From the sequence record DRR378314_2131: a stretch of DNA of 53,565 nucleotides. One strand, 5' to 3'. The translations under genes and the position numbers were made by a program. Within the stretch, counting starts at the first letter, position 1. Each line of letters opens with the position of its first letter. Below are positions 22,051 to 53,127 of the stretch, piece by piece. The notes beneath the pieces were generated by a model that saw only the letters and a program-made list of their open reading frames with translations, was not told the origin of the DNA and did no database searches.

Positions 22051-22056
22051 GTCGGA

Positions 22057-34463: not shown

Positions 34464-34546
34464 TTTGGGAAGCTCCTCAACATAAATTTGCAATTTCGCA
34501 AAAATATCCCAATAATTAGGGGCCTATCATGAACAGCGCCAGCCTC

Positions 34547-34575
34547 TTGACTTATCATTGGTATACCTTAACAGT
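34547..34575 (+). promoter_or_regulatory. Probable sigma70 promoter containing GntR operator copy 4
   Basis: TTGACT (-35, 34547-34552) followed by ATTGGTATACCTT (34557-34569) in the spacer. Confidence 0.65.
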
Positions 34576-34612
34576 CGACGCAGTGGAATCAATCTCAGTT
34601 AGGAGACACCGA

Positions 34613-35770: not shown

Positions 35771-36600
35771 TGACACGCACCGAAAGGCACACAATGCTGA
35801 CGCAAGAACACATGACCGCTTATCGAAACGATGGCGTGGTTCAGATCAAAAACGCATTTTCGCAGGAATGGTTGGACGAAGTGCGAAGTTCGATTGAATT
35901 TGGTCGCGCCAATCCGGGGCCGATGTATCTGGACTATTCCAAAGACACCAATCCGGGCACCTACTGCACAGACATGTGGATCTGGCGCGAAAATGCCCAC
36001 ATGAAGAATTTCATTTTCAATTCTCCAGCGGCAGAACTTGCAGGCGAAGCGATGGAGGCCAGTTCCGTTGCACTCGTGACTGACAATTGGCTGGTGCGCG
36101 AGGCCGGCGCGGTCAACAGAGCGCCCTGGCACCATGACAACCCCTATTTCGATGTCAGCGGCGAATGGTGTGTACTGTGGATGGGACTTGAACCCGTTCG
36201 TCAGGGTGAGGGCGTGGTCTTCCTCAAGGGTTCGCACAAATGGGGGCGCAGATTCATGCCTCTCAGCTTTGCCGGCACCGGACAAAAGGCAGCACTACAG
36301 GAACCCTATGAGCCCACACCGGACTTCACTGAAAATCTGGATGATTATGACGTGCTGGAATTTGATCTGGACCCCGGTGATTGCCTGATCTTCGATTCCC
36401 ATACATTGCATGGCGCCCCCAACCCTGTACCGCCTGAACGTACCGTCAACCGTCTGACAATGCGCTTCGCCCACGGGAATGCAGCGTTTGAAAAACGAGG
36501 CAGTTGGACCGACGCGCAGACAGAATACTGGCAGGCTCATGGAATGAAGGAAGGTGAACCCATTGTAGGCGAACTGCTGCCGCTTGTGTGGAGCCGGTAG
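35770..36600 (+). CDS. PhyH-family Fe(II)/2-oxoglutarate dioxygenase
   Basis: PWHHD (HxD), GSHKWG, PGDCLIF and TLHGA motifs. ATG 35794 is an alternative start. Confidence 0.88.
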   Translation: MTRTERHTMLTQEHMTAYRNDGVVQIKNAFSQEWLDEVRSSIEFGRANPGPMYLDYSKDTNPGTYCTDMWIWRENAHMKNFIFNSPAAELAGEAMEASSVALVTDNWLVREAGAVNRAPWHHDNPYFDVSGEWCVLWMGLEPVRQGEGVVFLKGSHKWGRRFMPLSFAGTGQKAALQEPYEPTPDFTENLDDYDVLEFDLDPGDCLIFDSHTLHGAPNPVPPERTVNRLTMRFAHGNAAFEKRGSWTDAQTEYWQAHGMKEGEPIVGELLPLVWSR

Positions 36601-36705
36601 CTGTATTTGAACGAACATCAGTCGCAAAGGTTTCGATGGTTGAATATGCCACTGAGCTAGTAGCCAACGAAACGGCACAACTCCAGCTCTAGAAGGTCTC
36701 TCCTC

Positions 36706-37944: not shown

Positions 37945-37956
37945 GGGACAACGCAA

Positions 37957-38235
37957 TTGAAAATCATGCACTGTCCGTTGAACGGACCCCGCAACATTTC
38001 CGAATTCATTTGTTACGGCGAATTCCACAACCATCCCGACCCGGACAAGACTTCCGACAAGGATTGGGCCGAGTACGTCTGGCTCGCCAATAACGCCGCT
38101 GGCGTAGTGCGCGAATGGTGGTGCCATACGCCGACCAACTACTGGTTCATTGCCGAACGTAACACCGTGACAGACGAAATCCTTCGAACCTATCCATCCG
38201 AGGACCTTCGCCCATCCGAGGAACTCCGATCATGA
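37957..38235 (+). CDS. soxD: Sarcosine oxidase/Mgd-type delta subunit
   Basis: CPLNGPRNISEF, EWWCH and ERNTVTDEI motifs. Confidence 0.88.
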   Translation: MKIMHCPLNGPRNISEFICYGEFHNHPDPDKTSDKDWAEYVWLANNAAGVVREWWCHTPTNYWFIAERNTVTDEILRTYPSEDLRPSEELRS

Positions 38236-41099
38236 CTCAAATCACTCGAACCGGCGCGCTGATCGACAGCACGAAACCGATCACTTTTTTCTTTGAGGGA
38301 AAACGCTACTCCGGTGTTCAGGGCGACACCATTGCCTCGGCCCTGGCGGCCAATGGGCAATGGGTTCTGTCGCGCAGCTTCAAATACCATCGCCCGCGCG
38401 GGGTGCTGACCATGGCCGGTCAGGACGCCAATACATTGGTGCAGATCGGCAATGAGGTCAGCGTTTTTGCCGACCGTCACCCGATTTCTGAAGGGCTAGA
38501 GATCAAGGCTCAAAACGTCAACGGTTCCTTGGAGAAAGATCGCGACTTCTTCATGAACCGTATGGGGCGTTTCATGCCTGTGGGGTTCTATTATCGCACT
38601 TTCTATAAGCCTAAAGGCATCTGGGAGAAAATCTGGGAACCGCTGATCCGTGCCAAGGCGGGTCTGGGCACTATGGATATCAATGCGCCCGAAGACGGTT
38701 ATCACGACAAAGCTTATGGCTGGTATGATGTGGTTGTGGTGGGTGCCGGTCCTGCTGGTCTGGCTGCGGCGCTAGAGGCGGCCAAGTTGGGTGGGTCTGT
38801 TCTGCTGGTTGATGAAAATCCACAGCTGGGCGGCGCGGCGACCTATGCACGCGGCATGAATTTGCAAGACCTGATCGATCATGTCGAGGCGATGGAAAAC
38901 ATCGAGACTTGGACTGACGCCGTCTGTAATGGCTGGTTTGCCGACAATTGGCTGGCGGTGATCCAGGGTAACCGATTGCACAAAATCCGGGCGCGTCAGT
39001 TGGTGCTTGCCACAGGACTGATCGAACAACCCGCGCAATTCCGCAACAACGATCTGCCTGGGATTATGCAGGGTTCCGCTGCGCAGCGTTTGATAAAATC
39101 TTACGGTGTCACACCGGGGCAGACGGCAGTTGTTCTGGCGGGCAACGATGACGCCTATGGTGTGGCTCTTGACTTGGTGGATGCAGGTGTTTCCGTCACT
39201 GTCTGCGAACTGCGCAAGGAGGCGGAAGGGCCATTGCGGGCACAGGTTCAGACAGTGGGGCTTACCATCCACGATGGCTGCTGCATCTATGAGGCCTTGC
39301 CCGGGCCAGGCCACAAGCATGTGCGGGGCGTCTCCATTGCCGAATTGGACGACGCGGGTGCAGCGACTGGTAAGCAGCGGATGCTACCGTGCGATCTGGT
39401 CTGCATGTCGGTGGGCTACACACCAACCTATCAGCTCGCTGTGCAAGCTGGCGGCAAAGTTGGGTATGACGATAAAACGGCCATGTTCTCGATCACTGGG
39501 CACAACGCCGACGTTGGTCTCGCTGGATCAATGGATGGCCGATACGCGCTGGAGCGCTGTGTAGCTCATGGCACGGCCATGGGTGCGCGGGCTGCGGCCC
39601 GGCTGTCGGAGGCTGATGCCCCGGAAGCGCCAGACAAATGCGCCACTTCGCCCAATTACCCCTGGCCGATTTTCCCACATCCTAAAGGCAAGGATTTTGT
39701 GGATTTCGACGAAGATCTGCAAATCAAGGACATCAAGAATGCGGTTGCCGAGGGCTACCGCGAACTGGAATTGGTTAAACGCTTCTCCACCGTTGGCATG
39801 GGGCCTAGCCAAGGTCGGCACGCGGCGCTGCCGACCGCACGCCTGGTCGCCAAACACTCCGACCGCTCTGTTGCGGAAGTGGGGGTCACCACCGCGCGAC
39901 CACCTTTTACAACGGAAAAGATTGCCACGCTGGCGGGACGTAAGTTCACGCCGATGCGCCGCACGCCGATGCATTCCCGGCATGAGTCAGCCGGAGCAGA
40001 ATGGTTGCTGGCAGGGAATTGGCAACGTCCGGCTTATTATGGGCGGGGCAATGCTAAGAAGACCATTGCGCTCGAAGTCAGTAATGCGCGCACCAACGTC
40101 GGTATGATCGATGTTTCAACGCTTGGTGGGTTGGATGTGCGCGGTCCTGATGCGGCAGAATTCCTCAATCGGATGTACACATTTGCCTATGCCAAACTGC
40201 CCATCGGCAAAACACGTTACCTGCTGATGACCAATGAGGCGGGTACAGTGATTGACGACGGTGTGGCTTGCCGCATTGCCGAGGATTACTTCTACATCAC
40301 CGCAACCACCACCGGCGTCGACAATATCTACCGTAATATGCTGTGGTGGAACGCCCAATGGCGGTTGGACGTGGATATTGCCAATGTGACCGCAGCCTAT
40401 GCCGGCGTGAACCTTGCCGGACAAAATGCCCGTACGGTGCTTAACAAGCTGACAGATGATATCGCCACTGGCGCTGAGGATTTCCCGTATCTCGCTTATC
40501 GCGAGGGGCATGTGGCAGGCATTCCCGCTCGGGCTTTCCGGGTCGGTTTCATTGGTGAGTTGGGCTACGAAATCCATGTGCCCGCGCGTTATGGCGGGGC
40601 GCTTTGGGATGCTATTGCAGAAGCGGGTGCCGAGTTTGGCATTCGCCCCTTCGGGCTGGAAGCACAACGCGTCATGCGACTGGAAAAGGGCCATGTGATT
40701 GTTGGCCAGGACACCGACGGTATGACCACGCCGGAAGAGCTGGACATGATCTGGGCGGTGGCCAATAAGAAACCATTCTTCGTCGGCAAACGCAGTCTGG
40801 AATTGCGCAACAAGACGCTTAGGGATCGTAAATTGGTCGGCTTCTCCCTGGATGAGATGCCTACGGCTGGATTGGAAGAAAGCAATCTGGTGATCAAAAA
40901 TGGTGAGATCGCGGGCTTTGTGACGTCGATCTGTCAGTCGCCTTCGGTGGGCAAGGTCATTGGTCTGGCCTATGCGGCCCGCTCTGACAGCGAGACCGGT
41001 GCGAAGATCACCTTGCGTGCCAGTGACGGAAGCCTGCATCAGGCAACCGTTTGCTCCCCCCATTTCTACGACCCCGACAACCAGCGGCAGGAGATGTGA
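38232..41099 (+). CDS. soxA: Sarcosine oxidase/Mgd-type alpha subunit
   Basis: RSFKYHRPRG, GAGPAG and GMGPSQG motifs, plus a GcvT-like folate domain (DVSTLG, RLEKGH). Confidence 0.9.
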   Translation: MTQITRTGALIDSTKPITFFFEGKRYSGVQGDTIASALAANGQWVLSRSFKYHRPRGVLTMAGQDANTLVQIGNEVSVFADRHPISEGLEIKAQNVNGSLEKDRDFFMNRMGRFMPVGFYYRTFYKPKGIWEKIWEPLIRAKAGLGTMDINAPEDGYHDKAYGWYDVVVVGAGPAGLAAALEAAKLGGSVLLVDENPQLGGAATYARGMNLQDLIDHVEAMENIETWTDAVCNGWFADNWLAVIQGNRLHKIRARQLVLATGLIEQPAQFRNNDLPGIMQGSAAQRLIKSYGVTPGQTAVVLAGNDDAYGVALDLVDAGVSVTVCELRKEAEGPLRAQVQTVGLTIHDGCCIYEALPGPGHKHVRGVSIAELDDAGAATGKQRMLPCDLVCMSVGYTPTYQLAVQAGGKVGYDDKTAMFSITGHNADVGLAGSMDGRYALERCVAHGTAMGARAAARLSEADAPEAPDKCATSPNYPWPIFPHPKGKDFVDFDEDLQIKDIKNAVAEGYRELELVKRFSTVGMGPSQGRHAALPTARLVAKHSDRSVAEVGVTTARPPFTTEKIATLAGRKFTPMRRTPMHSRHESAGAEWLLAGNWQRPAYYGRGNAKKTIALEVSNARTNVGMIDVSTLGGLDVRGPDAAEFLNRMYTFAYAKLPIGKTRYLLMTNEAGTVIDDGVACRIAEDYFYITATTTGVDNIYRNMLWWNAQWRLDVDIANVTAAYAGVNLAGQNARTVLNKLTDDIATGAEDFPYLAYREGHVAGIPARAFRVGFIGELGYEIHVPARYGGALWDAIAEAGAEFGIRPFGLEAQRVMRLEKGHVIVGQDTDGMTTPEELDMIWAVANKKPFFVGKRSLELRNKTLRDRKLVGFSLDEMPTAGLEESNLVIKNGEIAGFVTSICQSPSVGKVIGLAYAARSDSETGAKITLRASDGSLHQATVCSPHFYDPDNQRQEM

Positions 41100-41101
41100 T
41101 C

Positions 41102-41710
41102 ATGGACAATCCAATCGCACAAAGCCCCTTTGCTCATCGTTTGCGCGACACTCGCCCGACAGTCAGCGGCGGTGTGAAGATTACCGACCTTTCCGCCTTG
41201 CCGCGCACCGGCTTCAAAGGCCGAGGCACCCGCGACTGGCTGGCATCTCAAGTTGGCACCATGCCAGACGCCCCCAACCAAGCCGCCTTTCAAGACGATG
41301 GCACAGTCATCGCCTGGCTAGGCGGGCAGGAATACCTGGCACTGCCTGATCCAGAGGGTCGTTCCACCTTCTGCGCAAATCTGACGAAGGCCTGGGATAC
41401 AGCGCGGTCCACTAGCACTCAGGGCATCGGCTTTCCGCTGCCTCGGGAAGACAGCCATAGTTGGCTGTGGATCACCGGCGCAGATGTACCGTCGATGATG
41501 GCCAAGATTTGTGGTGTGGATCTGCGGCCTGACGTCTTTGCGGAAGGGGACGTGGCGCAAACCGTAGTTGCGCGGCTCGGTGCCATCCTGCTGCGCCAGG
41601 ATCGCAACGGCGAGTTCGGGCTTTATATGCTGAGCGATTTTGCTTCCGGCCATTACCTGTGGGATGTCCTACAAGATGCGGCGGCGGAATATGGCGGAGG
41701 ATTTGTCTGA
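41102..41710 (+). CDS. soxG: Sarcosine oxidase/Mgd-type gamma subunit
   Basis: Position after soxA; RTGFKG, KICGVDL and YLWDVL motifs. Confidence 0.82.
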   Translation: MDNPIAQSPFAHRLRDTRPTVSGGVKITDLSALPRTGFKGRGTRDWLASQVGTMPDAPNQAAFQDDGTVIAWLGGQEYLALPDPEGRSTFCANLTKAWDTARSTSTQGIGFPLPREDSHSWLWITGADVPSMMAKICGVDLRPDVFAEGDVAQTVVARLGAILLRQDRNGEFGLYMLSDFASGHYLWDVLQDAAAEYGGGFV

Positions 41711-41711
41711 G

Positions 41712-42767
41712 ATGCCAAGCTACCAGTTTAACTCGGACAATGGTGCACCGGTTTGTGACGAGGTGATGCAGGCTTTGATCGCCTGCAACACTGGCGTTGA
41801 GACAGCTTATGGCGCGGATCAGTGGACCGAGCGTTTGAACCCGGCATTTTCCGAGTTCTTCGAGCGTGAAGCCTTTGTCTTTCCCGTGCCCACGGGTACA
41901 GCAGGCAACGGTTTGGCTCTGGGCGCGATCACGCCACCCTATGGCACTATCTTTTGCCACCGCCTAGCTCATGTGGTCACCACCGAATGTGGCGCGCCGG
42001 AGTTTTACTCTGGTGGTGGGCGCATGACTTTACTGAGCGGGGCGCACAATAAGATCACGCCGCAGGCCTTGCGTCAGGCGCTCTCCGATCATGGCATCGG
42101 CAACGCCCATCATATGCAGGCCAGCGCGCTTTGTCTGACCCAGGCCACCGAATGCGGTGTCACCTATGGGTTGGAGGAATTAGCTGAACTGAATGCCATC
42201 GCTCACGGTACGGGCATGAAGACCCATCTGGATGGGGCGCGGTTTTCCAATGCGCTCGTCCACCTGGGCTGTTCCCCTGCGGAAATGACTTGGAAGGCGG
42301 GTGTTGATCTGCTGACCTACGGCACCACCAAAAATGGCACGATGAACGCTGAAGCCGTGATCACATTTGATCCGGCCATCGGCGCGGCGCTGCGCTTCAT
42401 GCATAAACGAGCAGGGCACCTTTCGTCGAAGATGCGCTACATGTCCGCCCAGCTCCTTGCCCATTTGGAGGATGATCTGTGGCGGACAAATGCGGCCCGC
42501 GCCAATGGCAATGCCACACGTATCCTCGCTGCCTTGCACGCCTGCCCAGGGGTCGAAGTTGTCCATCCGGTGCATATCAACGAAGTCTTTGTTCAGTTGC
42601 CGCTTGCGCTAGAGGCAGCGCTAGTAAAGGTAGGATTGTCCCTGCGTCCCTGGGTTTGTGACGGGCAAGGCAATGGAGTGCGCATGGTGATGTCCTATGC
42701 GGATGAGGAATCCCACTTGGAAATTTTTGAACATACCTGTCGTAATTTTTCGAAAAACTGCAATTAG
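41712..42767 (+). CDS. Low-specificity L-threonine aldolase-like PLP enzyme
   Basis: FNSDN, AYGAD, TGTAGN, ECGAPEF, HLDGARF and GTTKNG motifs. Confidence 0.88.
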   Translation: MPSYQFNSDNGAPVCDEVMQALIACNTGVETAYGADQWTERLNPAFSEFFEREAFVFPVPTGTAGNGLALGAITPPYGTIFCHRLAHVVTTECGAPEFYSGGGRMTLLSGAHNKITPQALRQALSDHGIGNAHHMQASALCLTQATECGVTYGLEELAELNAIAHGTGMKTHLDGARFSNALVHLGCSPAEMTWKAGVDLLTYGTTKNGTMNAEAVITFDPAIGAALRFMHKRAGHLSSKMRYMSAQLLAHLEDDLWRTNAARANGNATRILAALHACPGVEVVHPVHINEVFVQLPLALEAALVKVGLSLRPWVCDGQGNGVRMVMSYADEESHLEIFEHTCRNFSKNCN

Positions 42768-42878
42768 GGCGCTTATCCGAGGCTTTTTCACGCACCGCTG
42801 CAGATTTGATGCCGGGAGATAACAAATGCTTTGAGCGTAGACTTTTAGAATTTTGTCAATGCAACAAACTGGAGGAGA

Positions 42879-43613
42879 GTGAGTTCTACCATGAGAATCG
42901 GAATTGTTGGAACAGGTACCATAGCCGCCGCCGTTGTCGATGGGATTGCTGAGGACGGCCACCAAATCACCGTTTCACACCGCGGAGAGGCGCACTCCTC
43001 CCGGCTCGCTGGAAAATATGAAAATGTGACTGTTGCTGACAATCAAGAGGTCCTTGATGCGAGTGACATCGTGTTCCTGGGTCTGGTGGCTGAACAAGCA
43101 AGGCCCGTTCTCTCTTCCCTGACATTCAGGCCAGACCAAAAGATCATATCACTCATGTCCGGCCCGACGCTCTCAGATTTGCGAGAAATGGTTGCGCCGG
43201 CGACTGCTGTCGCAAATATGATCCCTTTTCCTGGAATCGCCACAGGCGGATCTCCGATCTTGATACTGGGCGATGCTGCAATCGCCAATGCGCTTTTTGG
43301 GGCTCGCAATTCTATCTTCCAACTAGCGGATCAAAGTGAACTTGCCGCCTATCTCGCCGCTCAGGCTGTGCTTTCACCGGCAACAGTCATGGTGCAGAAA
43401 GCCGGAGAATGGCTGGGAGAAAATGTTAAAGATGCTGCGCAGGGCGAAGCGTTTTTACGTGCTTTGGTCGGCTCTAGCCTGCAAGCCACTCCGGATTGCC
43501 AGCACCTGATCCGGGCACTGAACACACCCGGAGGATATAACCAGCGCCTGCGGAATTATATGGAAACTTCGGGCTTCACGGAGCAGCTTAAACAGGGGCT
43601 TTCCAAGTTATGA
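42879..43613 (+). CDS. Pyrroline-5-carboxylate reductase-like NAD(P) oxidoreductase
   Basis: RIGIVGTGTIA and TPGGYN motifs. ATG 42891 is an alternative start. Confidence 0.75.
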   Translation: MSSTMRIGIVGTGTIAAAVVDGIAEDGHQITVSHRGEAHSSRLAGKYENVTVADNQEVLDASDIVFLGLVAEQARPVLSSLTFRPDQKIISLMSGPTLSDLREMVAPATAVANMIPFPGIATGGSPILILGDAAIANALFGARNSIFQLADQSELAAYLAAQAVLSPATVMVQKAGEWLGENVKDAAQGEAFLRALVGSSLQATPDCQHLIRALNTPGGYNQRLRNYMETSGFTEQLKQGLSKL

Positions 43614-43899: not shown

Positions 43900-44313
43900 T
43901 CAGTATCTTTTTTCGAAAATTCCACGACGTTCATAAACCGTTGCGGCTTCTTCAATGAACTTCGCCAAAAGCTCTGCCTTATAGATGGACCGGAGAACAT
44001 CGGCCTGCGCGTGAAGCATTTCCAAATCGGCCCGTCCCGGACGCAGCATTTCATAGGTTTCCATGATAACGTCTTGAGGGATCGCAACGAGTTCGGCCGC
44101 ACGGTGAAAATTCTCGGCAAGGGTGCGGCGGCCCCCGGCAAGTGCTATTTCTGCCTGCAAATGCAGAGCTTCAGGAGTGATTGCGAGGTCAGCCGCTGTC
44201 ACCTCCCCAGCCAGAACTGCATCCAGCGTGATGTCTGACAGAAGTTTGCCGGTTGGTGTTTTGACCCGATCAGGCGCATTCTCGGCAAGTGGGTAAAGGT
44301 CTTTAACCGACAT
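43900..44313 (-). CDS. pduE: B12-dependent diol/glycerol dehydratase small (gamma) subunit
   Basis: YPLAE, KTPTGK, LAENFHRAAEL, LRPGR and FIEEAATVYE motifs. Confidence 0.92.
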   Translation of the reverse strand: MSVKDLYPLAENAPDRVKTPTGKLLSDITLDAVLAGEVTAADLAITPEALHLQAEIALAGGRRTLAENFHRAAELVAIPQDVIMETYEMLRPGRADLEMLHAQADVLRSIYKAELLAKFIEEAATVYERRGIFEKRY

Positions 44314-44317
44314 GGCA

Positions 44318-46582
44318 CTACGCTCCTTTGGGCGATAACGTGAGTTGAATGGGTTTTGCCTTGGGGTCGGTCATCTCAGTTTCCAATGCGAAGAGGATAG
44401 CAACACGCGCATGGAAACGGGCCGAGAGTGCCTCGCCCCGGAAGGGGACAACAACCGGCTCCGGTGCCTCTCCGAAGGTGTGGCGGGCCGCATTCCTGCC
44501 AAGTAGCTTGTAATGATCGAGCAGAACCAACGGCGCGTTCGAAAACAACTCAAGGTTCAAATGCGGCAAGCGATCGGAACGGTGCAGGACGGCGGTGCCT
44601 TTCGATTGAATGCCAATGCCAATCCCTGAACCAGACAGCTTAGCCGCCGATAAACCAACAAAAGATGTATCGGCCGTATGCATGATCCGCACCAGCCTTG
44701 CATTGCCGCCAGCGTCTTCAATGCCCGATACAATAGCGTTGACAACATCGGGCAGGCCATGGCCCGCAGACGTTCTGTGCATCTCTGTCCCGAAAGCCGG
44801 ACTGACGCCAATGACAACCTCATGTCGGTCCTCACCGGGCTCCGCGGTTCCCGCGTCAAAAAGCCAATCCGGGAATTTCTCCTTTCCCAGAGCTTCCGTT
44901 GCAAGAACGCTTTCCTTCGTCAGGGTTCCCCGGACGGATTTTACATCTGCCCAGCGTTTTTCGTCCATACGATAGCCGCTTGCCGGGCCGCTATAATCGT
45001 TGGGGTCATTCAGTGCGCTGATGATCTTGCCACCGCGGAAGATCGCAGAGGTTTGCAGGTAGTCGCCGGTCACGCGCTGCTTCAGCATGAAAAGGAGGTT
45101 CTCGGCCTCCTCGCGGAAGCCACGTTTGGCCAGGGCGCGAACAACGTCCACGGCGGTGATTTTCCGGCTCTTGATGGCTTCGCTAATCGGAGTGACCTCA
45201 CCGGCAGTGAAACTTTTCGTGTCATCTGAGCCCGAGGCAAAGACCACAGATTGAATCATTGATGTTGTAACATCGGCCAGACCGAGCTCTTCGAACACCG
45301 CAGTCAAAGCCTCTACAGCGCGAATTCGCACTCCAAGTGCGCGCTCTTCGTCAAGTGGTGTCAATCCGCCATCGACTTCGAAGTCTCGTTGCAGCGTCAG
45401 GTATTCCTCGATCTCTTCACCGTTGAATAAAGAGGCATTAAATGTGTTGTCGTATTTATTGATCGATCCCTGCCCACTGGTGATCAGGTCGGAACCTGCC
45501 AGCAGAAGTGGCGTGATCTTGGCGCCAACACGTATTTCAGATTCACTGGTGCGGGCATCGTTGCCAGATGCACATTCCAAACCAAGCCAAACAGCGATCA
45601 GGTTCTCGGCCATAAGTTCTCTGACCCCGCCCGGCATCGATGCGGTCAAAGCCGCGCCATCCACGCCGCCATTTTGCGTGCCCTGAATGCCCATTGCGCG
45701 CTGCACGCAAAGGCACCGGGCTTCGAGATAGAGTACAGACTTCTTTTCGTGAAACCCCATAAGAAGCTCGGCACCCGCCCCCGACGTGCATCGCGCCTTA
45801 ATTCCGCGCGACGCGTAAGCCGCCGTGAGGAACGCTTTGGACCAAGGCGTGTCGTCACCATCAATAAAAGCATTTTCTGTTCCGTATACAGAGATGGTCT
45901 CTGCATAGGTTGCCAGGCCGGCCATTCCGATCTGCAATTCTTCCGCCTCTTCAATAGAGCACTGAAACAGGGCGTCTCCGCGACCGACGGCGGCTCCGAC
46001 CGTACAAGCAAGCGCGTTGGCCCAAGAATTCGAAGAAACGCGCATCGTTGTCTCGAGTTCGTCAAAACCCAATTCCGCAGCAGTTGCCGCGTCCGCGGCC
46101 AATTGCAGCGGATCGTCCTTGGCATTAGTGACATGCGCCTGATTGCCTGGGGTCTTACGCTGTCGCATTTTTGAATATGCAAACGCGACCTCAAGCGACG
46201 AAAGATGCGCGACAACGTTGGCAAGTTTTGCCGGTGTCATGCCGCGCGCCAGCCGCTCCAGCTTTTCTCTGGGAACATTGATATCCACCAGCATCCTAGC
46301 AATTTCACCATCATCAATGGCCATGGCCTCTTCAACCAGGTCCGGATCCAAATGATGGCGTGCGATAAATTCGTCCAGAATGTCGAAGTCCTTTTCAGAC
46401 TTGCCATCCAGACTGACAACACGTCCGCCTTTGATCGTAACGGCAGGCGTGGGATCATAAGGGCTTTTGAAAACCGAAAACCCAGCCTCGGGCTCTTCTT
46501 CTGCGAAGAGATCAAGGCGGAGCATTCTATCGTCCCAATCGGAAAAGCGCCGCCAGCGATTGGTGTCAGAGGTGTTGGCCAT
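44318..46582 (-). CDS. Fused large (alpha) + medium (beta) subunit of an adenosylcobalamin-dependent diol dehydratase-family enzyme
   Basis: Alpha motifs QAHVTN, YAETISVYGT, DGDDTPWSK and QRDFEVDGGL. In the same frame, beta motifs EVVIGVSPAFG, SGSGIGIGIQSKGT and NLELFSNAPL. Confidence 0.92.
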   Translation of the reverse strand: MANTSDTNRWRRFSDWDDRMLRLDLFAEEEPEAGFSVFKSPYDPTPAVTIKGGRVVSLDGKSEKDFDILDEFIARHHLDPDLVEEAMAIDDGEIARMLVDINVPREKLERLARGMTPAKLANVVAHLSSLEVAFAYSKMRQRKTPGNQAHVTNAKDDPLQLAADAATAAELGFDELETTMRVSSNSWANALACTVGAAVGRGDALFQCSIEEAEELQIGMAGLATYAETISVYGTENAFIDGDDTPWSKAFLTAAYASRGIKARCTSGAGAELLMGFHEKKSVLYLEARCLCVQRAMGIQGTQNGGVDGAALTASMPGGVRELMAENLIAVWLGLECASGNDARTSESEIRVGAKITPLLLAGSDLITSGQGSINKYDNTFNASLFNGEEIEEYLTLQRDFEVDGGLTPLDEERALGVRIRAVEALTAVFEELGLADVTTSMIQSVVFASGSDDTKSFTAGEVTPISEAIKSRKITAVDVVRALAKRGFREEAENLLFMLKQRVTGDYLQTSAIFRGGKIISALNDPNDYSGPASGYRMDEKRWADVKSVRGTLTKESVLATEALGKEKFPDWLFDAGTAEPGEDRHEVVIGVSPAFGTEMHRTSAGHGLPDVVNAIVSGIEDAGGNARLVRIMHTADTSFVGLSAAKLSGSGIGIGIQSKGTAVLHRSDRLPHLNLELFSNAPLVLLDHYKLLGRNAARHTFGEAPEPVVVPFRGEALSARFHARVAILFALETEMTDPKAKPIQLTLSPKGA

Positions 46583-46675: not shown

Positions 46676-47482
46676 CTAGATGCATTCCCCGCCATCTACG
46701 ACCAGCGCATGACCCGTCATGAACGAAGACATATCGGAGGCAAGAAATACAATAGCATCTGAGATTTCACTACATGTCGCCCACCGACCCATTGGAATGT
46801 TGTCCTTAACATACTGTTCCAACGCACCTCGCCCTCCCATCTGAACCTCGAAGCCGGCATTGAACGGTGTGTCCACAAAGCCCGGGCAAAGAGAGTTGAA
46901 ACGGATGTTGAGATTGGCATAGTCAGCCGCCATCTGTCGCGTCATCGCAACAACCGCGTGCTTTGTCGTCGCATAAGCAATCATGCCTCGATCATATTGG
47001 ATGCCAGAATTGGATGCTGTGATAATAATGCTGCCGCCGCCCTGTCGTTTCATAGGTTGAATTGCGGCTCGGGCAGCAATGAAATGGGCTCGTACATTTA
47101 TTGCCCAGCTCGCATCCATCCCCTCCGGGGCAACCTCTTCGAGCGACCCTTCGACTTGAATTCCTGCATGGGAATGAAGAATATCAAGGCGGCCATGTTC
47201 TTCCGCCGTTTCAAGAACCGCTGCTTCCAACGCCGCGTCCTCGCCGACATCCAGCTGGCGTGACGAGCCATGGAAGCCTTTGGCCACGATCTCGTTCTGA
47301 ACAGCCGCGGCCAAATCTCCATCACGATCTGACACGACAACATGTGCGCCACACCGCGCCATTGCGAGCGCCCCGGCCCGCCCAATCCCTGAGCCCGCAC
47401 CAGTTACCAGGGCAATTCGACCGTTCAGCGAGACCATGTCCGCGGGAGATTTTGACATAGTTTGCGTTGCAATTCCGTTCAC
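46676..47482 (-). CDS. Short-chain dehydrogenase/reductase
   Basis: TGAGSGIG, TASNSG, YATTK and CPGFVDT motifs. Start uncertain (47482 or 47458). Confidence 0.9.
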   Translation of the reverse strand: MNGIATQTMSKSPADMVSLNGRIALVTGAGSGIGRAGALAMARCGAHVVVSDRDGDLAAAVQNEIVAKGFHGSSRQLDVGEDAALEAAVLETAEEHGRLDILHSHAGIQVEGSLEEVAPEGMDASWAINVRAHFIAARAAIQPMKRQGGGSIIITASNSGIQYDRGMIAYATTKHAVVAMTRQMAADYANLNIRFNSLCPGFVDTPFNAGFEVQMGGRGALEQYVKDNIPMGRWATCSEISDAIVFLASDMSSFMTGHALVVDGGECI

Positions 47483-47749: not shown

Positions 47750-48541
47750 ATGAAATTTGACTTTGATCCCACAGGGCAGTTGATCGGTGATATCGGAAAA
47801 ACTGCGTTCGGAGCCAGTTTGTCAGCTGCGCTTCAGGAGATCGTCCCTTTCGACTACACCGTAGTATTCGGTTATCACGGATCGGCACGGCCGCTTGATC
47901 TCTACGATGATTTCCCACGCAAAAAGAGAAAGATCTTTGTCGAAGACTACCAGGAAGGGCCATACCTTCTGGATCCCTTTTTCCTTGCCACGACCAATCC
48001 CAACGAGTCGGGACTTTACCGCCTGCGTGACCTGGCTCCGGACCGGTTTTATCAGGGTGAATATTTTCGCAACTACTACGTGCAGACCGACCTCGCGGAG
48101 GAGATCGCATTTTTTGTGAACTTGCCCGACGCTGCAGTTGTGGTTGTGTCACTGATGCGTGCCCAAAAGGCATTCACCGTCAAAGAATGTCGTGACCTGA
48201 ACAGATACGCTCCCATCGTTCTGGCCGCGTGTGAACAGCATTGGTCTGATCTGGCGCAAAAGTTTGGCGCTCCGGGTGCAGATAAGAAGGCTGATAGTGG
48301 CGAGGGAAGCCTGGAACTTGCATTTCAGCAATTCGGCCTTGGACTGCTCACGCCCCGGGAAAAGGAAGTGGCCGAATTCACGCTTAAAGGTCATTCCGCT
48401 GCTGCCGTTGGACGAATTTTGGAAATCTCACCCGGCACCGTGCGCATACATCGTCGAAATATCTATTCCAAACTGCGAATCCGATCTCAGGGCGAACTGT
48501 TTTCCGAGTTTATTGACACTCTGCTGGAAAACTCTCCCTGA
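47750..48541 (+). CDS. LuxR-type HTH regulator with an N-terminal sensor domain
   Basis: C-terminal LTPREKEVA...GTVRIHRRNIYSKL. N-terminal GPYLLDPF motif; not an AHL-binding or receiver domain. Confidence 0.9.
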   Translation: MKFDFDPTGQLIGDIGKTAFGASLSAALQEIVPFDYTVVFGYHGSARPLDLYDDFPRKKRKIFVEDYQEGPYLLDPFFLATTNPNESGLYRLRDLAPDRFYQGEYFRNYYVQTDLAEEIAFFVNLPDAAVVVVSLMRAQKAFTVKECRDLNRYAPIVLAACEQHWSDLAQKFGAPGADKKADSGEGSLELAFQQFGLGLLTPREKEVAEFTLKGHSAAAVGRILEISPGTVRIHRRNIYSKLRIRSQGELFSEFIDTLLENSP

Positions 48542-48709: not shown

Positions 48710-48874
48710 CTAAAACCAGATCAGCCAGATCAGGAAGACAAGAATCAGGATGATGACATCCCAGAAGATGATCTCACCGATCCGAAACCAGCCCTTACGA
48801 CGGTTGAGTGCGTTGAGCAAACACCAGAAAAAAGCAGCGACAACGATCGGGACAATATGGACTATAGAGCTCAT
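48710..48874 (-). CDS. Unannotated 54-aa two-helix membrane protein
   Basis: MSSIVHIVPIVVAAFFWCLLNALNRRKGWFRIGEIIFWDVIILILVFLIWLIWF*. ATGA overlap with the ATPase stop. Shorter than any ORF in the supplied track. Confidence 0.7.
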   Translation of the reverse strand: MSSIVHIVPIVVAAFFWCLLNALNRRKGWFRIGEIIFWDVIILILVFLIWLIWF

Positions 48875-49926
48875 GACCTACGCCGCCCGTCACTGATTTC
48901 GAAGAAATGGCGAGTATGTTCCGGAAACTCCAGATGAATTTGGGAGCTGCGATCAAGACCGGTAGTGTCATGCATGACGCGTACAACCAGAGAGGTGTTG
49001 TCTTTCTTGACGAACATCAAAGCGTCGGGTTCGACCAGTTCCAAAACGTCTAGATCAAAGCTGACAGTTTGATCTGTAGGTGCTTCCTGAAGCAATATCT
49101 GTTCAGGTCGGACGCCAAGGGCTACCGGCCCGTTCGGTTGTCCCGTGACCGGTAATTCGAACGTTCCCGACCTGAACACGCCACCCGCAACTTCGCCGTC
49201 CAGAACGTTCATCGCAGGTCGCCCGATAAATTCCGCGACGAACCGTGTCGCCGGTTCATGGTATACGCGTCGCGGCGTGTCGAACTGTGCCAGCTTCCCA
49301 CCGTTCAGAACCGCTATTCGGGTGCCAAGAGTCATTGCCTCTTCTTGGTCGTGGGTCACGAAGACAAAGGTCTGGCCCAGATCGCCATGCAGGCGTTTCA
49401 ACTCTGTTCTGGTTTCTAGCCGAAGCAGCGCATCCAGATTGCTCAGCGGTTCATCCATCAGGCAAATTTCCGGATTCCAGACGAGTGCACGGGCAACTGC
49501 AACGCGCTGTGCCTGCCCGCCTGAAAGCTGGCTTGGCCGTCTGTCCAGATAGCTTTCAATTTGCAGAACTTTCGCAATCGCACGGACGCGACTGTCGATG
49601 TTGCCGTTGTCGATTTTTCGTATGCGAAGCGGGTAAGCAATGTTTTCGTAAACTGTTTTGTGCCCATAAAGAGCATAGTTCTGAAACACCATTCCCATGT
49701 TTCGTTCTCGCGGCGGCAAACTCGTAACCTCAAGGTCGTCTACGGTCACGGAACCGCCCGTTGCTTCTTCGAGACCGGCGAGGATTCGGCATGCCGTTGT
49801 TTTACCGCTGCCCGATGGGCCCAGCAGAACGATGAACTCACCCTTCTCGAATTCCAAATTGAGATTGTCCAGCGCAACGGTGCCATCACCGAAAACCTTG
49901 CTGATCTGGTTATAGGAAACAGCCAT
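48871..49926 (-). CDS. Carbohydrate ABC transporter ATP-binding protein (MalK-like)
   Basis: GPSGSGKTT, VFQNYALY, LSGGQAQ, MDEPLSNLD and VTHDQEEA motifs. Confidence 0.93.
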   Translation of the reverse strand: MAVSYNQISKVFGDGTVALDNLNLEFEKGEFIVLLGPSGSGKTTACRILAGLEEATGGSVTVDDLEVTSLPPRERNMGMVFQNYALYGHKTVYENIAYPLRIRKIDNGNIDSRVRAIAKVLQIESYLDRRPSQLSGGQAQRVAVARALVWNPEICLMDEPLSNLDALLRLETRTELKRLHGDLGQTFVFVTHDQEEAMTLGTRIAVLNGGKLAQFDTPRRVYHEPATRFVAEFIGRPAMNVLDGEVAGGVFRSGTFELPVTGQPNGPVALGVRPEQILLQEAPTDQTVSFDLDVLELVEPDALMFVKKDNTSLVVRVMHDTTGLDRSSQIHLEFPEHTRHFFEISDGRRRS

Positions 49927-49930
49927 AGTC

Positions 49931-50752
49931 TTATCCTTTTACTGCGCCGAAGGTGAGGCCTCGAACGAGGTGTTTTTGCACCAGGAATGTGAAGAAGATG
50001 ATCGGCAGAGTTGCAACGACTGCAACTGCGGCTACCTGCCCCCAAAGCGTACCATGTGGCGTAACCAGACCGGGGATGCCAACCGTCAGTGTCCGCCCTT
50101 CAAAGGCGACCAGAATGAACGCATAGAGGAATTCATTCCAGCTGAGGATGAAGCACAGAACTGCGGTTGCCGCGAGTCCGGGCGCCGCCAGGGGGAGCAA
50201 GACCCTCAGGAATGTACCACCACGCGTGTGGCCATCCATCATCGCAGCTTCGTCGATCTCTCTGGGAATATCGGCGAAAAAACCGCGCATCATCCAGACC
50301 ACTAAAGAGACATTGAAGGTCGTATGCGCAAGAATGACGGCAATCGGCTTGTCCGTTAGCCCCAGCACCGAAAACAACAGGAACATCGGCACGACGATGG
50401 AAATCGGGGGGGCCATGCGTGTGGTCAGAAAGAAGAAGAACAGGTCTTCTTTTCCGGGAAAATCATACCGGGCAAACACGTAGGCGGCCGGTGTGCCAAA
50501 CGCCAGCGACAATATTGTGCTGAACGAAGCCACAATCATGGAGTTCCAGACCAGTGGCAGGTAATTCTTGTCGATGAAAATCGTTGGGTAGTTCTCCGAG
50601 GTCGGTGTGAAGAACCAAAGGGGTGCGTCTGACAATATATCAAGACGTGTTTTGAAGGATGTCATGACAATCCAGAGATAGGGCGTCAGGAACAAGATCA
50701 GAATAGCGATCAGCGTTGCCACCATCGCCATTTTCCAGCCTCGGCTTATCAT
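49931..50752 (-). CDS. Carbohydrate ABC transporter permease (MalG-like)
   Basis: EAA loop IPREIDEAAMMDG, SWNEFLYA and GLTFGAVKG motifs. Confidence 0.93.
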   Translation of the reverse strand: MISRGWKMAMVATLIAILILFLTPYLWIVMTSFKTRLDILSDAPLWFFTPTSENYPTIFIDKNYLPLVWNSMIVASFSTILSLAFGTPAAYVFARYDFPGKEDLFFFFLTTRMAPPISIVVPMFLLFSVLGLTDKPIAVILAHTTFNVSLVVWMMRGFFADIPREIDEAAMMDGHTRGGTFLRVLLPLAAPGLAATAVLCFILSWNEFLYAFILVAFEGRTLTVGIPGLVTPHGTLWGQVAAVAVVATLPIIFFTFLVQKHLVRGLTFGAVKG

Positions 50753-51681
50753 GATGCTGCCTTTCCGACCGTTTTCGAGCGGCCTTCATTCCAGTACACG
50801 GCCTTGTAGAAAACCGAGCACATGATCAGGACGACGAGATACACCATGAAGGCACACACCGCCCCATAGCCAAGATCCCAGTCCCTGAAGTTGATTCGAT
50901 AGGTGTAAATCGACAGCATTTCCGTAGAGATGCCGGGACCTCCGCCGGTCAGGATGAATACCTTATCGAACTCTTTGAACGCATCAATTCCGCGTAGTAA
51001 AAGGACAAGCGCGATGATTGGGCGCAGAAGAGGAAGCGTGACATCTCTGAAAATCTGCAAAGGCCGTGCACCATCCATTATGGCGGCTTCAAATGGTTCC
51101 TTTGGCAAGCTGAGCAGACCAGCAAGGATGACCAAGGTTACAAACGGTGTCCATTGCCAGACATCGATCAGCATGATTGCCGGCATGACCAGTGACGGAT
51201 TGCCCAGAATGGACGTTTGCTGATCGGCAAGGCCGAAGTACCGCAAATAGTAAGTGAACATCCCGAAATCGCCCGAAAGCAAAAGCTTCCAGATCAGTCC
51301 GACTGCAATCGGTGCCAGCATCATGGGGACGAGCAGCAGAGTCAGGATGAAGCGATGCTGCTTGATGTAGTGGAAAAGCAGCAACGCCAAGCCCAGACCA
51401 AACATGAATTCGACCAAGACGACCCCAAAGACAAACTTCATGGTCAACCAGAAACTATGCCAGAAAATGGGGTCGTCCTGCATCAGTCTCCGGAAATTTG
51501 CGAACCCTACAAATGCGCCATCCCGGTTTGGCAGCGCATAGTGGAGATCCGTAAAGCCGGTCCAGACCATGTAGAGGAACGGTCCCAGAAGAATGACGAA
51601 GAGCAGGATAACGGAGGGAACCAGCAACAGAGGTGCTACTCCGTGATCCAGCACCCTCTCAATTATCCTGTTTGTTCGCAT
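50749..51681 (-). CDS. Carbohydrate ABC transporter permease (MalF-like)
   Basis: DVWQWTPF, EAAIMDGA and LTGGGPG motifs. Confidence 0.93.
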   Translation of the reverse strand: MRTNRIIERVLDHGVAPLLLVPSVILLFVILLGPFLYMVWTGFTDLHYALPNRDGAFVGFANFRRLMQDDPIFWHSFWLTMKFVFGVVLVEFMFGLGLALLLFHYIKQHRFILTLLLVPMMLAPIAVGLIWKLLLSGDFGMFTYYLRYFGLADQQTSILGNPSLVMPAIMLIDVWQWTPFVTLVILAGLLSLPKEPFEAAIMDGARPLQIFRDVTLPLLRPIIALVLLLRGIDAFKEFDKVFILTGGGPGISTEMLSIYTYRINFRDWDLGYGAVCAFMVYLVVLIMCSVFYKAVYWNEGRSKTVGKAAS

Positions 51682-51732
51682 TTCGGTTCCAGCCTCTACT
51701 AGGTTTCAACAGTTCGCAGTTCTATGAACACA

Positions 51733-53127
51733 CTATTCCACCGGATACTTGAGCGGTGCGCAGTCCCCGAGAAGCTCGGACATTTCCACTGCCGCATCAT
51801 CCAGGGCCTCTTTGGCATTCTTCGCGTCAGACAGGTAACTGCTCAGCTCACGCACCAGAATATCGGTGATCTGCGGCGATTCCGGGATCGTCGGCTTTGG
51901 CCGCGCTGCCGCGTTGGTGTCCATCGACGCCTGAGAGTAGCTGATGGCCTGCACATCAGGGTGTGCGTAGACGTCTGGTCGGGCCGTTGCGCCACCGTTC
52001 AGATGCTGATTGAGCTGCTGGGTTTCCTCCATCATCCACTGGATGAACAGATAGGCGGCTTCCTGGTTCTTCGAACCCGCCGGGATAAGGTAGGTCCAAC
52101 CTTCAACCTGGCCCACAGGCTCTCCATTCGCTTGTGGCGGAACAATGTCAAACCCCATCTTTCCTGCAACGGTGCTGGCCTCGTGATCTTCGGCGACGGC
52201 ATAAGTCGCGTCATTCCACATGATCATCTGATACACCTTGCCCTGCTGCATCAACGCCATGACCTCATCCCAGGTGTAGTTGAGGGAATCCGCGGGCGAA
52301 TAGGCCAACAGGCTCTTGTAGTATTCAAGTGATGCAATCGCTTCAGGGCTGTTGACGACAACCGGGCCGCACTCACTTCCGGAATTCGTTTCCAGCATGT
52401 CGCCACCGAAGCTGTAGAGGAAGTTCAGCCATTCGTACCACAGCGCTTCGTGGCGCTTGCCTTGCAGGGCCGTACCGTAAAAGCCTTCATCCGGTCGATG
52501 AAACCACTCGGCGATATCGGTGTATTCCTGCCAGGTGGTCGCCGGCTTCAGCTCATAGCCGTATTTTTCTTTGAACCCGGCTCTCTCATTCGGATCATTG
52601 AGCAGATCATCTCGGTACCACATGTACATGTTAAGTGCAGTGAACGGGAACCCATAGACCTGACCTTCATACCAAGAGATTTCATGCCACAAGCCCTGAT
52701 AAAGCTGTTCCTCTGGCATAAAAGAAGGATCGCGCAGGCTTGGGTCATTCATGAATCTTTCGACCGGCTCGAGATGGCCATTGGCGACAAAACGGCCTAG
52801 TTCGCGGTGCGGCTGCAGAATGAAATCGTAGCGTCCGCGGCGCGAGTTCAGGTCCAGCATGACCTTGTTGACCGCCTCGGAATGCTCATACATCTCGATC
52901 TCGACGGTGATGCCGGTCCGGCTCTCGAATTCACTTTTCAGCTTGGCCATAGCCTCCAGCGGTGGAAGCGCTTCGCCCACAGTCCGAATCGTAGTTCCCT
53001 CATATGGCGCGGCGGCCTCTTCTAGCGACCAGGCCATGGCCTCCGTTCCCTGAAGCGCCAGCAGCCCGCAGACTGCCAAGGAGGCGCTTGATCGAACAAA
53101 TCGACCCACTAAACTTCTACCAATCAT
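51733..53127 (-). CDS. Carbohydrate/polyol ABC transporter substrate-binding protein (CUT1)
   Basis: Signal peptide, FESRTGITVE, YRDDL and PATTWQEY motifs, GGGAGA RBS. Confidence 0.9.
   Translation of the reverse strand: MIGRSLVGRFVRSSASLAVCGLLALQGTEAMAWSLEEAAAPYEGTTIRTVGEALPPLEAMAKLKSEFESRTGITVEIEMYEHSEAVNKVMLDLNSRRGRYDFILQPHRELGRFVANGHLEPVERFMNDPSLRDPSFMPEEQLYQGLWHEISWYEGQVYGFPFTALNMYMWYRDDLLNDPNERAGFKEKYGYELKPATTWQEYTDIAEWFHRPDEGFYGTALQGKRHEALWYEWLNFLYSFGGDMLETNSGSECGPVVVNSPEAIASLEYYKSLLAYSPADSLNYTWDEVMALMQQGKVYQMIMWNDATYAVAEDHEASTVAGKMGFDIVPPQANGEPVGQVEGWTYLIPAGSKNQEAAYLFIQWMMEETQQLNQHLNGGATARPDVYAHPDVQAISYSQASMDTNAAARPKPTIPESPQITDILVRELSSYLSDAKNAKEALDDAAVEMSELLGDCAPLKYPVE

Follow-up and report, generated by a model that had tools for sequence, protein, structure and literature searches.

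Adenosylcobalamin (AdoCbl, coenzyme B12)-dependent diol and glycerol dehydratases, which are textbook examples of radical enzymes and serve as catalysts in industry, undergo suicide inactivation and so depend on a reactivase. Here we describe a member of this family encoded at positions 44318..46582, on the minus strand, of sequence record DRR378314_2131, a stretch of 53,565 nucleotides that is called the window below. The gene, from a marine Ruegeria, joins the alpha and beta subunits in one polypeptide and has an aspartate in the substrate pocket, and the large enzyme group to which it belongs probably acts on a polar diol, possibly a nitrogen-bearing one, rather than on plain propanediol. 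Among the described systems, the diol dehydratase of Klebsiella oxytoca (PddABC) and Salmonella (PduCDE; EC 4.2.1.28; PDB 1dio) has the three domains and the Ca-binding and catalytic residues in common with the window enzyme, is 46% identical to it over the alpha part, and presumably shares with it the radical 1,2-hydroxyl shift. The window enzyme differs from PddABC/PduCDE in the alpha-beta fusion, in the substitutions S301D, Q336A, T337R, A174R, S299G, and C302G, and in lacking the PduD N-terminal extension, and its locus has an ATP-binding cassette (ABC) importer and a short-chain dehydrogenase/reductase (SDR) instead of reactivase, shell, or pdu genes. Klebsiella glycerol dehydratase (DhaB123/GldABC; EC 4.2.1.30; PDB 1iwp) is 48% identical in the alpha part, with the pocket motifs QNGAVSC and NDQT where the window protein has QNGGVDG and NDAR; the dha locus places a reactivase, a 1,3-propanediol dehydrogenase, and an adenosyltransferase beside the enzyme, none of which is present at the window locus. 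Engineered DhaB alpha-beta fusions (PDB 9vi2) have 754 residues, the same length as the window protein.

Natural alpha-beta fusions were reported for Mesorhizobium loti and Mycobacterium smegmatis (Liu et al. 2010, as cited in PMC7674605 and PMC4777399), and PMC4777399 adds Hyphomicrobium as a host. The portions of these two papers that were available describe the fused enzymes as having a "slightly different" active site and as occurring without reactivase genes, and treat them as glycerol dehydratases, no substrate test being named there. As far as those portions go, the fused DhaB1-DhaB2 systems of these three hosts resemble the window in having one alpha-beta gene plus a gamma gene, no reactivase, and aerobic hosts. 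Mesorhizobium homologues are approximately 70% identical to the window enzyme, and the window gene is a member of the fused DhaB1-DhaB2 group from which it shows no essential difference. The natural fusion has been in print since 2010, and the branch is biochemically uncharacterized: our literature search returned no activity study of a fused enzyme or of one with Asp at the position of Ser301 (Asp-type), nothing on the enzyme in Ruegeria or roseobacters, no characterized amino-diol B12 dehydratase, and no report linking AdoCbl dehydratases to 3-amino-1,2-propanediol. RMM2 microcompartment loci are defined by diol dehydratase homologues (Axen 2014, PMC4207490); the sections of that paper available to us hold that the compartment probably does not use the dehydratase and also consider a bifunctional RMM2 compartment. 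Relatives of the window gene likewise occur with the SDR, APH-type kinase, class-III aminotransferase-family enzyme (class-III), and permease genes of RMM2/AAUM (aminoacetone-utilization) loci and, in 8 of 80 genome loci, with microcompartment shell genes, whereas the window has only an SDR, and that of another subfamily. Ethanolamine ammonia-lyase, EutBC, whose substrate is a vicinal amino alcohol, is an AdoCbl radical eliminase. It had no sequence relation to the window enzyme in the searches made and serves as a comparison of function only; EutBC binds its substrate without the Ca2+-diol site, which is fully conserved in the window enzyme.

The preliminary description of this DNA, which was made from the letters alone, had recognized PduC-like and PduD-like parts within one 754-residue open reading frame (ORF), and profile searches found both families in a single ORF on the minus strand, the plus strand across 44318-46582 being closed by many stop codons. 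The alpha domain (residues 9-555, nucleotides 44918-46558) matched Dehydratase_LU (PF02286) throughout those residues with 706 bits at profile positions 2-549 of 552, and within the beta domain (residues 561-748, nucleotides 44339-44902) Dehydratase_MU (PF02288) matched residues 594-706 with 79.6 bits. The NCBIfam large-subunit model NF011979 was passed (801.5 bits against a cut-off of 788), and the medium-subunit model NF011616 scored 176 bits, below its cut-off of 248; because the latter match begins at profile position 30 (30-216 of 219), the PduD N-terminal extension is missing from the beta part. The top PDB matches were the engineered glycerol dehydratase alpha-beta fusions of 9vi2 (687.8 bits), 1iwp_A (546.5 bits), and 1dio_A (535.9 bits). 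An AGGAG ribosome-binding site stands 8 nucleotides 5' of the alpha-beta ATG, and the gene for the gamma (small) subunit (43900..44313, minus strand, 137 residues) starts 4 nucleotides past the alpha-beta stop codon. The gamma protein matched PF02287 with 152.3 bits and stayed below the cut-offs of all NCBIfam small-subunit models (top score 168 against 196). A gamma gene on the same strand and no more than 100 nucleotides away is also a feature of 72 of the 80 related loci. From these features we infer that 44318-46582 and the gamma gene encode a working AdoCbl diol dehydratase of the PduCDE/DhaB type. An Rfam scan of the whole window returned no family at the gathering score, so no cobalamin riboswitch is recognized in it. 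A few near-identical contigs of 150-250 nucleotides, covering the gamma/alpha-beta junction and the start of alpha-beta, were found in oligo-dT metatranscriptomes; these are no evidence of expression because carry-over of DNA is possible.

The alpha part was aligned with Salmonella PduC (554 residues, from a plasmid record), K. oxytoca DhaB1, and three relatives (alignment A2). A2 is free of gaps from residue 9 to approximately 515, so that the offset to PduC is a constant +7, as had been stated in the preliminary description for the alpha subunit of the K. oxytoca diol dehydratase. Gln148, His150, Glu177, Glu228, Gln303, Asp342, Ser369, and Phe381 form invariant columns of A2 and equate to Gln141, His143, Glu170, Glu221, Gln296, Asp335, Ser362, and Phe374, the Ca2+ ligands and catalytic residues, all eight of which had been described as retained; the mutant table in the available part of PMC7674605 lists Gln141, His143, Glu170, Gln296, and Ser362. 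Around this conserved core, the C3-pocket residues Ser301 and Gln336 of the characterized propanediol and glycerol enzymes are replaced by Asp308 and Ala343. The PduC segment Q296-N-G-S-V-S301-C aligns with Q303-N-G-G-V-D308-G of the window protein, N334-D335-Q336-T337 with N341-D342-A343-R344, and E170-T-T-V-A-V with E177-T-T-M-R-V. On the minus strand, Asp308 (GAT) occupies 45659..45661, Ala343 and Arg344 (for Gln336 and Thr337) occupy 45551..45556, with Ala343 being GCC at 45556-45554, and Met180 and Arg181 (for Val173 and Ala174) occupy 46040..46045. The three motif replacements, including the codon of Asp308, were thus as first described, and Asp308 does equate to Ser301 when both the diol and the glycerol dehydratase are aligned. 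The role that had been given to Ser301 and Gln336, namely shaping the pocket near substrate C3 and governing inactivation by glycerol, agrees with what PMC7674605 reports in the part available: the C3 hydroxyl of glycerol in its pro-S conformation is directed at Ser301, and S301A and Q336A alter glycerol inactivation, the rate being lowered for the K. oxytoca diol dehydratase in the table of that paper. The substituted residues are the relevant ones of the pocket because Ser301 faces that hydroxyl and both mutations change inactivation. An AF2 model of the whole protein from a separate alignment (A1) had a mean pLDDT of 60.1, with segments 140-155, 179-183, 298-317, and 335-408 below 50.

An identical protein (100%) is present in Ruegeria lacuscaerulensis HKCCD5857 (locus L001), and the nearest genome (G001) has it too. 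For the close homologues we took the query and the best 120 of 7998 matches (121 sequences). All of these best 120 are fused, have both domains, comprise 743-795 residues, and are 67-97% identical to the window enzyme; their names include Ruegeria, Mesorhizobium, Bradyrhizobium, Ancylobacter, Shinella, Parvibaculaceae, and others. The motif QNGG[IV]DG, and hence the Asp, occurs in 121 of the 121 sequences, and for this reason the pocket change is not due to chance. ETTMRV was found in 114 of the 121, ETTTRV in 3, and ETTFAY in 4, and 115 gave a clean match to SGNDxR, with Arg at position 344 (Lys in 2, Gln in 1, and 3 off-target or unmatched). The preliminary description had also counted the loss of Gln336 as part of the remodeling; Ala343 is indeed present in this gene but is no feature of the clade, since position 343 is Thr in 80, Ala in 28, and Gln, Val, or Cys in 7 of the 115 clean matches. 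It had further described alpha-beta fusions as reported in a few bacteria; the fusion is more widespread than that, since a relative was present in 521 stretches of a collection with one genome per species. More than 500 species genomes, mostly of Alphaproteobacteria, contain a member of the clade, and the window gene is an ordinary one.

The Asp state extends beyond this clade. When homologues were reduced to representatives of 50%-identity clusters, 96 of 151 rows covered the site (the 55 with a gap there were dropped), and of these 41 had Asp and 38 had Ser. A second Asp-type clade, designated clade b, has members named as Thermoleophilia, Gaiellales, and other Actinomycetota, and 119 of 119 of its sequences have QNGGIDG, NDTL, and ETTVP. 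Clade b thus has Leu and Pro in place of Arg344 and Arg181, the two Arg residues being specific to the alphaproteobacterial clade. In a quick, midpoint-rooted tree of 46 hand-picked rows, the stem of the alphaproteobacterial clade is long (0.94 changes per column, SH-aLRT 100), and the Asp state spans two of the three main lineages. Because of this span, Asp308 is a family-level state and not a quirk of this gene.

The surroundings of the clade were surveyed in 80 genome loci, for which all ORFs were clustered and the clusters were named by Pfam. Forty-eight loci extended for 8 kb or more on either side of the dehydratase. Of these, 46 contained a gamma gene, 44 an SDR, and 42 an ABC ATPase, the latter two counts being upper bounds because the clusters are broad; 22 contained an APH kinase or class-III gene (16 contained both), 10 an isochorismatase-type hydrolase, 17 a LuxR-type regulator, and 15 a GntR-type regulator. 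By tblastn, an SDR of the window's subfamily (at least 40% identity) occurs in 41-42 of the 80 loci and a second SDR subfamily in 24. A LuxR homologue of at least 40% identity is present in 17 of the 80, and 48 have an SDR no more than 3.5 kb from the dehydratase on its strand. Four layouts were distinguished. Layout I, the window's type and common in Mesorhizobium-like genomes, has the LuxR gene, a CUT1 importer, and alpha-beta, gamma, and SDR. Layout II combines a CUT1 importer with alpha-beta, gamma, ATPase, SDR, kinase, class-III, and GntR in one operon, an order borne out by the RefSeq annotation of a Shinella plasmid. Layout III has alpha-beta, gamma, an isochorismatase-type hydrolase, an APC permease, and SDR, with kinase and class-III convergent, and layout IV is similar with a Pot-like ABC importer and, in Aestuariivirga, bacterial microcompartment (BMC) shell genes. 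The kind of importer varies with the layout, from CUT1 sugar/polyol through Pot-like polyamine to APC amino-acid permease. FGGY kinase and DeoR/GlpR genes adjoin some related operons, one layout-III locus includes an aldehyde dehydrogenase of the succinate-semialdehyde type (TIGR01780, 710 bits against a cut-off of 646), and two small conserved neighbors in related loci (184 and 130 residues) had no Pfam match at E 0.05.

The preliminary description had pointed to the neighborhoods of Asp-motif homologues, and these were informative for the relatives, though not for the window: a kinase and/or class-III gene stands in 34 of the 80 genome loci, beside enzymes of the same clade that are 66-78% identical to that of the window, and the window itself has neither. 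The class-III protein of layout II (Shinella-type) matched the PDB phospho-lyase 5g4i (367 bits) and the human ethanolamine-phosphate phospho-lyase 6tor (343 bits), the next being a GABA aminotransferase (187 bits). The kinase of layouts III and IV (Aestuariivirga-type) matched PDB 6ef6 (285 bits), which we take to be the (S)-1-amino-2-propanol kinase of M. smegmatis, and its class-III partner was nearest to putrescine aminotransferases (178 bits). Two non-orthologous kinase/class-III pairs accompany the dehydratase clade and were recruited at least twice. BMC shell genes were found in 8 of the 80 genome loci and in 3 of 10 metagenome loci of the alphaproteobacterial Asp clade. One of them (L076, 20906-21505, minus strand; PF00936) lies near an aminopropanol-kinase-like gene and the fused dehydratase, and the eight include Aestuariivirga and other Alphaproteobacteria; such shell-bearing loci are RMM/AAUM-like microcompartment loci outside Actinobacteria. 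A further observation concerns an isochorismatase-family hydrolase that directly follows gamma in 22 of the 80 genome loci, for instance in L076 at 12685-13383, and whose top NCBIfam models were biuret hydrolase and RutB, far below cut-off.

For controls, metagenomes were scanned with the actinobacterial Asp clade as the seed. The 80 loci obtained represent all pocket classes, and together with the 80 genome loci (160 in total) they were scored by tblastn with the same eleven queries. Classical Ser-type loci had a kinase or class-III match in 0 of 37 and a reactivase in 28 of 37. The alphaproteobacterial Asp clade had a kinase or class-III match in the 34 of 80 genome loci mentioned above and in 1 of 10 metagenome loci, and a reactivase in 0 of the 90; the reactivase partner has been lost in this clade. 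Fisher's test of 34 of 80 against 0 of 37 gave p = 1.5e-7, with the loci being phylogenetically related and not independent events. A small group with the motif GID[SAT] had a kinase or class-III match in 1 of 5 loci, namely L119, an actinobacterial Asp-type locus of the RMM2 pattern in which class-III matched with 61% identity and a BMC shell gene with 69%, a permease also being present. Separately, the actinobacterial Asp-type fused dehydratases retain a full reactivase (PF08841 at approximately 175 bits plus the swiveling domain) with 31-33% identity to DdrA, recognized in L098 at 13101-15097 and in L155 at 12617-14305.

In the window, the minus strand carries a CUT1-type ABC importer (48871..53127, assigned by Pfam and NCBIfam) followed by the genes for SDR, alpha-beta, and gamma (47482-43900), and a plus-strand LuxR-type gene lies between. 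The importer consists of a binding protein (51733-53127), two permeases (50749-51681 and 49931-50752), and a UgpC/MalK-like ATPase (48871-49926), all on the minus strand. The nearest PDB entry to the binding protein was 5iai, "Sugar ABC transporter" (2e-34); it also matched the sorbitol-binding 4rya and, weakly, the sulfoquinovosyl-glycerol binder SmoF (7e-10), and in the ESM Atlas only generic "sugar ABC" clusters were returned. Among the best 12 of 16 loci with a homologue of at least 40% identity, which include L001, the 11 related loci keep this protein at 71-74% identity. The SDR (46676..47482, minus strand, 268 residues) belongs to the same operon directly upstream of alpha-beta, with a gap of 93 nucleotides. 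Its best NCBIfam models were NF004791 (229.9 bits) and a BudC-like model (197.5 bits), neither match reaching the cut-off. It shares 55% identity with the SDR of L003, which stands between ABC ATPase and kinase in a layout-II operon, and 31% with the SDR of layout-IV/AAUM type. The LuxR-type regulator (47750..48541, plus strand) is divergent from the SDR-dehydratase operon, with a GerE helix-turn-helix at residues 200-250 and no Pfam family at E 0.05 in its N-terminal part. No match to the reactivase DdrA was found by tblastn across the 53.6-kb window, and Pfam showed no aldehyde dehydrogenase in the dehydratase operon. In G001 the top PF08841 match reached 19.3 bits against a cut-off of 24.6, and this genome carries adenosyltransferases of both the PduO and the CobO type.

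Several other features of the window were recorded. IS6-family transposases (DDE_Tnp_IS240) at 2-679 (plus strand, 130.5 bits) and 27040-27768 (minus strand, 136.6 bits) flank a block of catabolic operons, and the region has the appearance of plasmid, chromid, or island DNA. The plus-strand genes at 34529-43613, which run directly toward the dehydratase operon, encode a creatinase/ectoine-hydrolase-like M24 protein, a PhyH dioxygenase, sarcosine-oxidase-family beta, alpha, and gamma subunits, a threonine-aldolase-like pyridoxal-phosphate lyase, and a pyrroline-5-carboxylate-reductase-like protein, and appear to form an island for the catabolism of an N-methylated or cyclic amino compound. The lyase and reductase-like genes, the two of the island that were searched for, were found near the dehydratase only in L001, of the same species, among the 80 genome loci, and a link of the island to the dehydratase was rejected. 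For a set with an HpcH aldolase, a 2-hydroxyacid dehydrogenase, an IolD-like thiamine-pyrophosphate enzyme, an IolE-like TIM barrel, and a GFO/MocA oxidoreductase (14739-23765), a counterpart with 48-66% identity lies 3 kb upstream of the dehydratase in L076 (1537-7334), an Aestuariivirga metagenome-assembled genome, and none occurs in the other 78 genome loci; a link of this inositol-like set (14.7-23 kb) to the dehydratase was rejected as coincidence, there being 1 such case in 79 other genome loci. Genes for a phosphatidylserine decarboxylase, a CDP-alcohol phosphatidyltransferase, and an S-adenosylmethionine methyltransferase stand in a row at 1205-3271 (plus strand), probably an operon for phospholipid head-group synthesis. 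In G001, a 1025-residue protein (L090, 7696-10773, contig 14) joins APH kinase, peptidase-M23, and class-III aminotransferase domains and adjoins a 3-hydroxyisobutyrate-dehydrogenase-like gene.

As to the substrate, we tentatively favor a small imported 1,2-diol whose C3 side is cationic or strongly hydrogen-bond-donating, the best single candidate being an amino-diol of the 3-amino-1,2-propanediol type or a small amino-polyol. A nitrogen-bearing diol is rated likeliest because enzymes with the same pocket and 66-78% identity sit in operons whose sole common theme is a small molecule with the character of both a polyol and an amine, because the kinase/lyase pairs were recruited twice, and because an ammonium group has its natural partner in Asp. 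Such a compound would also suit each of the three types of importer. By analogy with the family, the two vicinal hydroxyls of the substrate would bind the active-site Ca2+, the adenosyl radical would take a hydrogen from C1, the C2 hydroxyl would move to C1, and the resulting gem-diol would shed water to give an aldehyde. Asp308 may pair with the cationic or hydrogen-bond-donating group on the C3 side, and the carbonyl product may be passed to the co-operonic SDR and, in many relatives, onward through an amino-alcohol kinase and a phospho-lyase, presumably in that order. Possible sketches include a ketone-forming dehydration to aminoacetone, conversion of a C4 amino-triol to 4-amino-3-hydroxybutanal and then a GABOB-type kinase/lyase step, and a route that starts with kinase and lyase (e.g., from serinol to hydroxyacetone), continues with the formation of 1,2-propanediol by the SDR, and ends with the dehydratase; this last sketch goes with the 1,2-propanediol alternative given below. 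In its most extensive form, the proposal would make the Asp-pocket clade a new B12 radical activity, an amino-diol or small amino-polyol dehydratase without a reactivase that feeds amino-carbonyls from substrates of the 3-amino-1,2-propanediol type into the kinase and phospho-lyase route of aminoacetone and aminopropanol. Its hosts would be hundreds of Alphaproteobacteria from soil and the sea, and it would also operate in the RMM2 compartments of Actinobacteria; at that breadth we regard the proposal as possible but doubtful.

A number of observations weigh against an amino-diol. With normal regiochemistry, 3-amino-1,2-propanediol would yield 3-aminopropanal, which the kinase/phospho-lyase pair could not use, and formation of aminoacetone would need reversed binding, with Asp308 then lying away from the amine. 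A cationic substrate is an awkward match for the two conserved Arg residues near pocket positions, and 3-amino-1,2-propanediol is not known as an abundant natural compound. The setting of the gene in the window resembles a polyol-uptake locus: the binding protein belongs to the sugar/polyol type and is only 24% identical to that of layout II, tblastn at E 1e-3 across the 53.6-kb window gave no amino-alcohol kinase, class-III enzyme, isochorismatase-type hydrolase, BMC shell, or APC permease, and the kinase and class-III genes of G001 lie in unrelated operons, namely the 1025-residue APH-M23-class-III fusion and a TctCBA-aldehyde dehydrogenase-class-III-APH operon. Clade b had a kinase or class-III match in only 1 of 28 loci and a reactivase in 7 of 28, many of the metagenome loci being short and only 9 of these 28 reaching 12 kb. 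In two long clade-b loci, Pfam showed Zn-dependent alcohol dehydrogenase, alpha-beta, gamma, full reactivase, aldehyde dehydrogenase, and GntR, or SDRs; one of the two has an amine oxidase upstream, and neither has the kinase/lyase pair. Clade b looks like ordinary diol catabolism, and since it combines Asp with reactivase, alcohol dehydrogenase, and aldehyde dehydrogenase and with almost no amine genes, Asp alone is no proof of an amine substrate. The Asp state may also be ancestral, given its presence in two of the three lineages of the quick midpoint-rooted tree. The suggestion in the preliminary description of a substrate other than propanediol or glycerol, possibly an amino-diol, was therefore upheld in part: amino-alcohol kinase or phospho-lyase-type genes accompany 34 of 80 relatives, among which amine-type importers also occur, and none of the 37 Ser-type loci has the kinase or lyase, but the window lacks amine genes and has a sugar/polyol binding protein, and Asp-type clade b shows the kinase/lyase in 1 of 28 loci.

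The same features of the window fit a neutral polyol or glycerol-type dehydratase, a somewhat unlikely account in our estimation, by which the ABC importer would take up glycerol, a tetritol, or a similar compound, Asp308 would accept a hydrogen bond from the C3 hydroxyl, the SDR would oxidize or reduce the resulting deoxy-hydroxy-aldehyde, and the amine genes of relatives would serve other substrates of a clade that is not isofunctional. In its favor are the nearness of the binding protein to sugar- and sorbitol-binding proteins, the UgpC-like ATPase, the absence of amine genes from the window by tblastn, and the 71-74% conservation of the binding protein in the best-matching loci of this layout, which points to one well-defined ligand; the resemblance of the SDR to butanediol, acetoin, and glucose 1-dehydrogenases (below cut-offs), the FGGY kinase and DeoR/GlpR genes beside some related operons, and the ordinary alcohol and aldehyde dehydrogenases and reactivase of clade b agree with it. 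However, enzymes 66-78% identical and with the same Asp and Arg are encoded in operons that combine the kinase/lyase with importers of amine type, an SDR from within such an operon shares 55% identity with that of the window, and glycerol inactivates the classical enzymes according to the part of PMC7674605 available, whereas no reactivase is present here. Inactivation is turned to account if the enzyme is instead an ordinary dehydratase of 1,2-propanediol (or ethylene glycol or 1,2-butanediol) in which the changes at 301 and 336 guard a reactivase-less protein from glycerol; consistent with this are the reduced rates of glycerol inactivation of the S301A and Q336A K. oxytoca enzymes (PMC7674605, in the part available) and the lack of a reactivase in all 90 clade loci and in G001. 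Such an enzyme might work beside or after amino-alcohol catabolism, with both routes ending in propanal, or in a serinol route through kinase, phospho-lyase, hydroxyacetone, SDR, 1,2-propanediol, dehydratase, and propanal. Every step of the serinol route would be orthodox chemistry, a BudC/acetoin-reductase-like SDR is a maker of vicinal diols, and a bifunctional RMM2 compartment was considered by Axen 2014 (PMC4207490, in the sections available). Nevertheless, a charged Asp opposite a methyl group is an odd path to resistance when Ala suffices in the mutants, propanediol needs no ABC importer, the operon lacks an aldehyde dehydrogenase, and the clade stem is long (0.94 changes per column) with further conserved Arg residues gained; we consider this explanation unlikely.

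The conserved Arg residues would find a direct role if the substrate were an anionic diol, such as 2,3-dihydroxypropanesulfonate (DHPS), glycerate, or glycerol phosphate, whose acid group Arg181 and Arg344 would bind. Both residues are confined to the alphaproteobacterial clade (Leu and Pro in clade b), and the binding protein has its weak match to SmoF (7e-10). DHPS is a common marine and soil metabolite in whose known catabolism SDRs take part, which also speaks for an anionic diol. This possibility nonetheless appears very improbable: an anion would meet repulsion from the invariant Asp at the C3 contact, 4 of the 121 sequences (ETTFAY) have another residue in place of Arg181 and the two such loci that were inspected (L047 and L049) keep the operon context, no sulfite or sulfonate genes were seen, and the amine-type importers and kinase/lyase partners do not fit.

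What these results describe is a very common branch of the B12 dehydratases that has no reactivase and has an invariant acidic residue where the side chain of the substrate sits. If the enzyme is instead an inactivation-resistant propanediol or glycerol dehydratase of aerobes, it would be of direct use for the production of 3-hydroxypropanal and 1,3-propanediol. If the favored reading of amino-diols as substrates is true, the reaction would be a new one for B12 and would account for the dehydratase genes that accompany amino-alcohol microcompartments, a matter left open by the BMC literature, and an amino-diol clade of this kind would point to an unrecognized natural pool of amino-diols.

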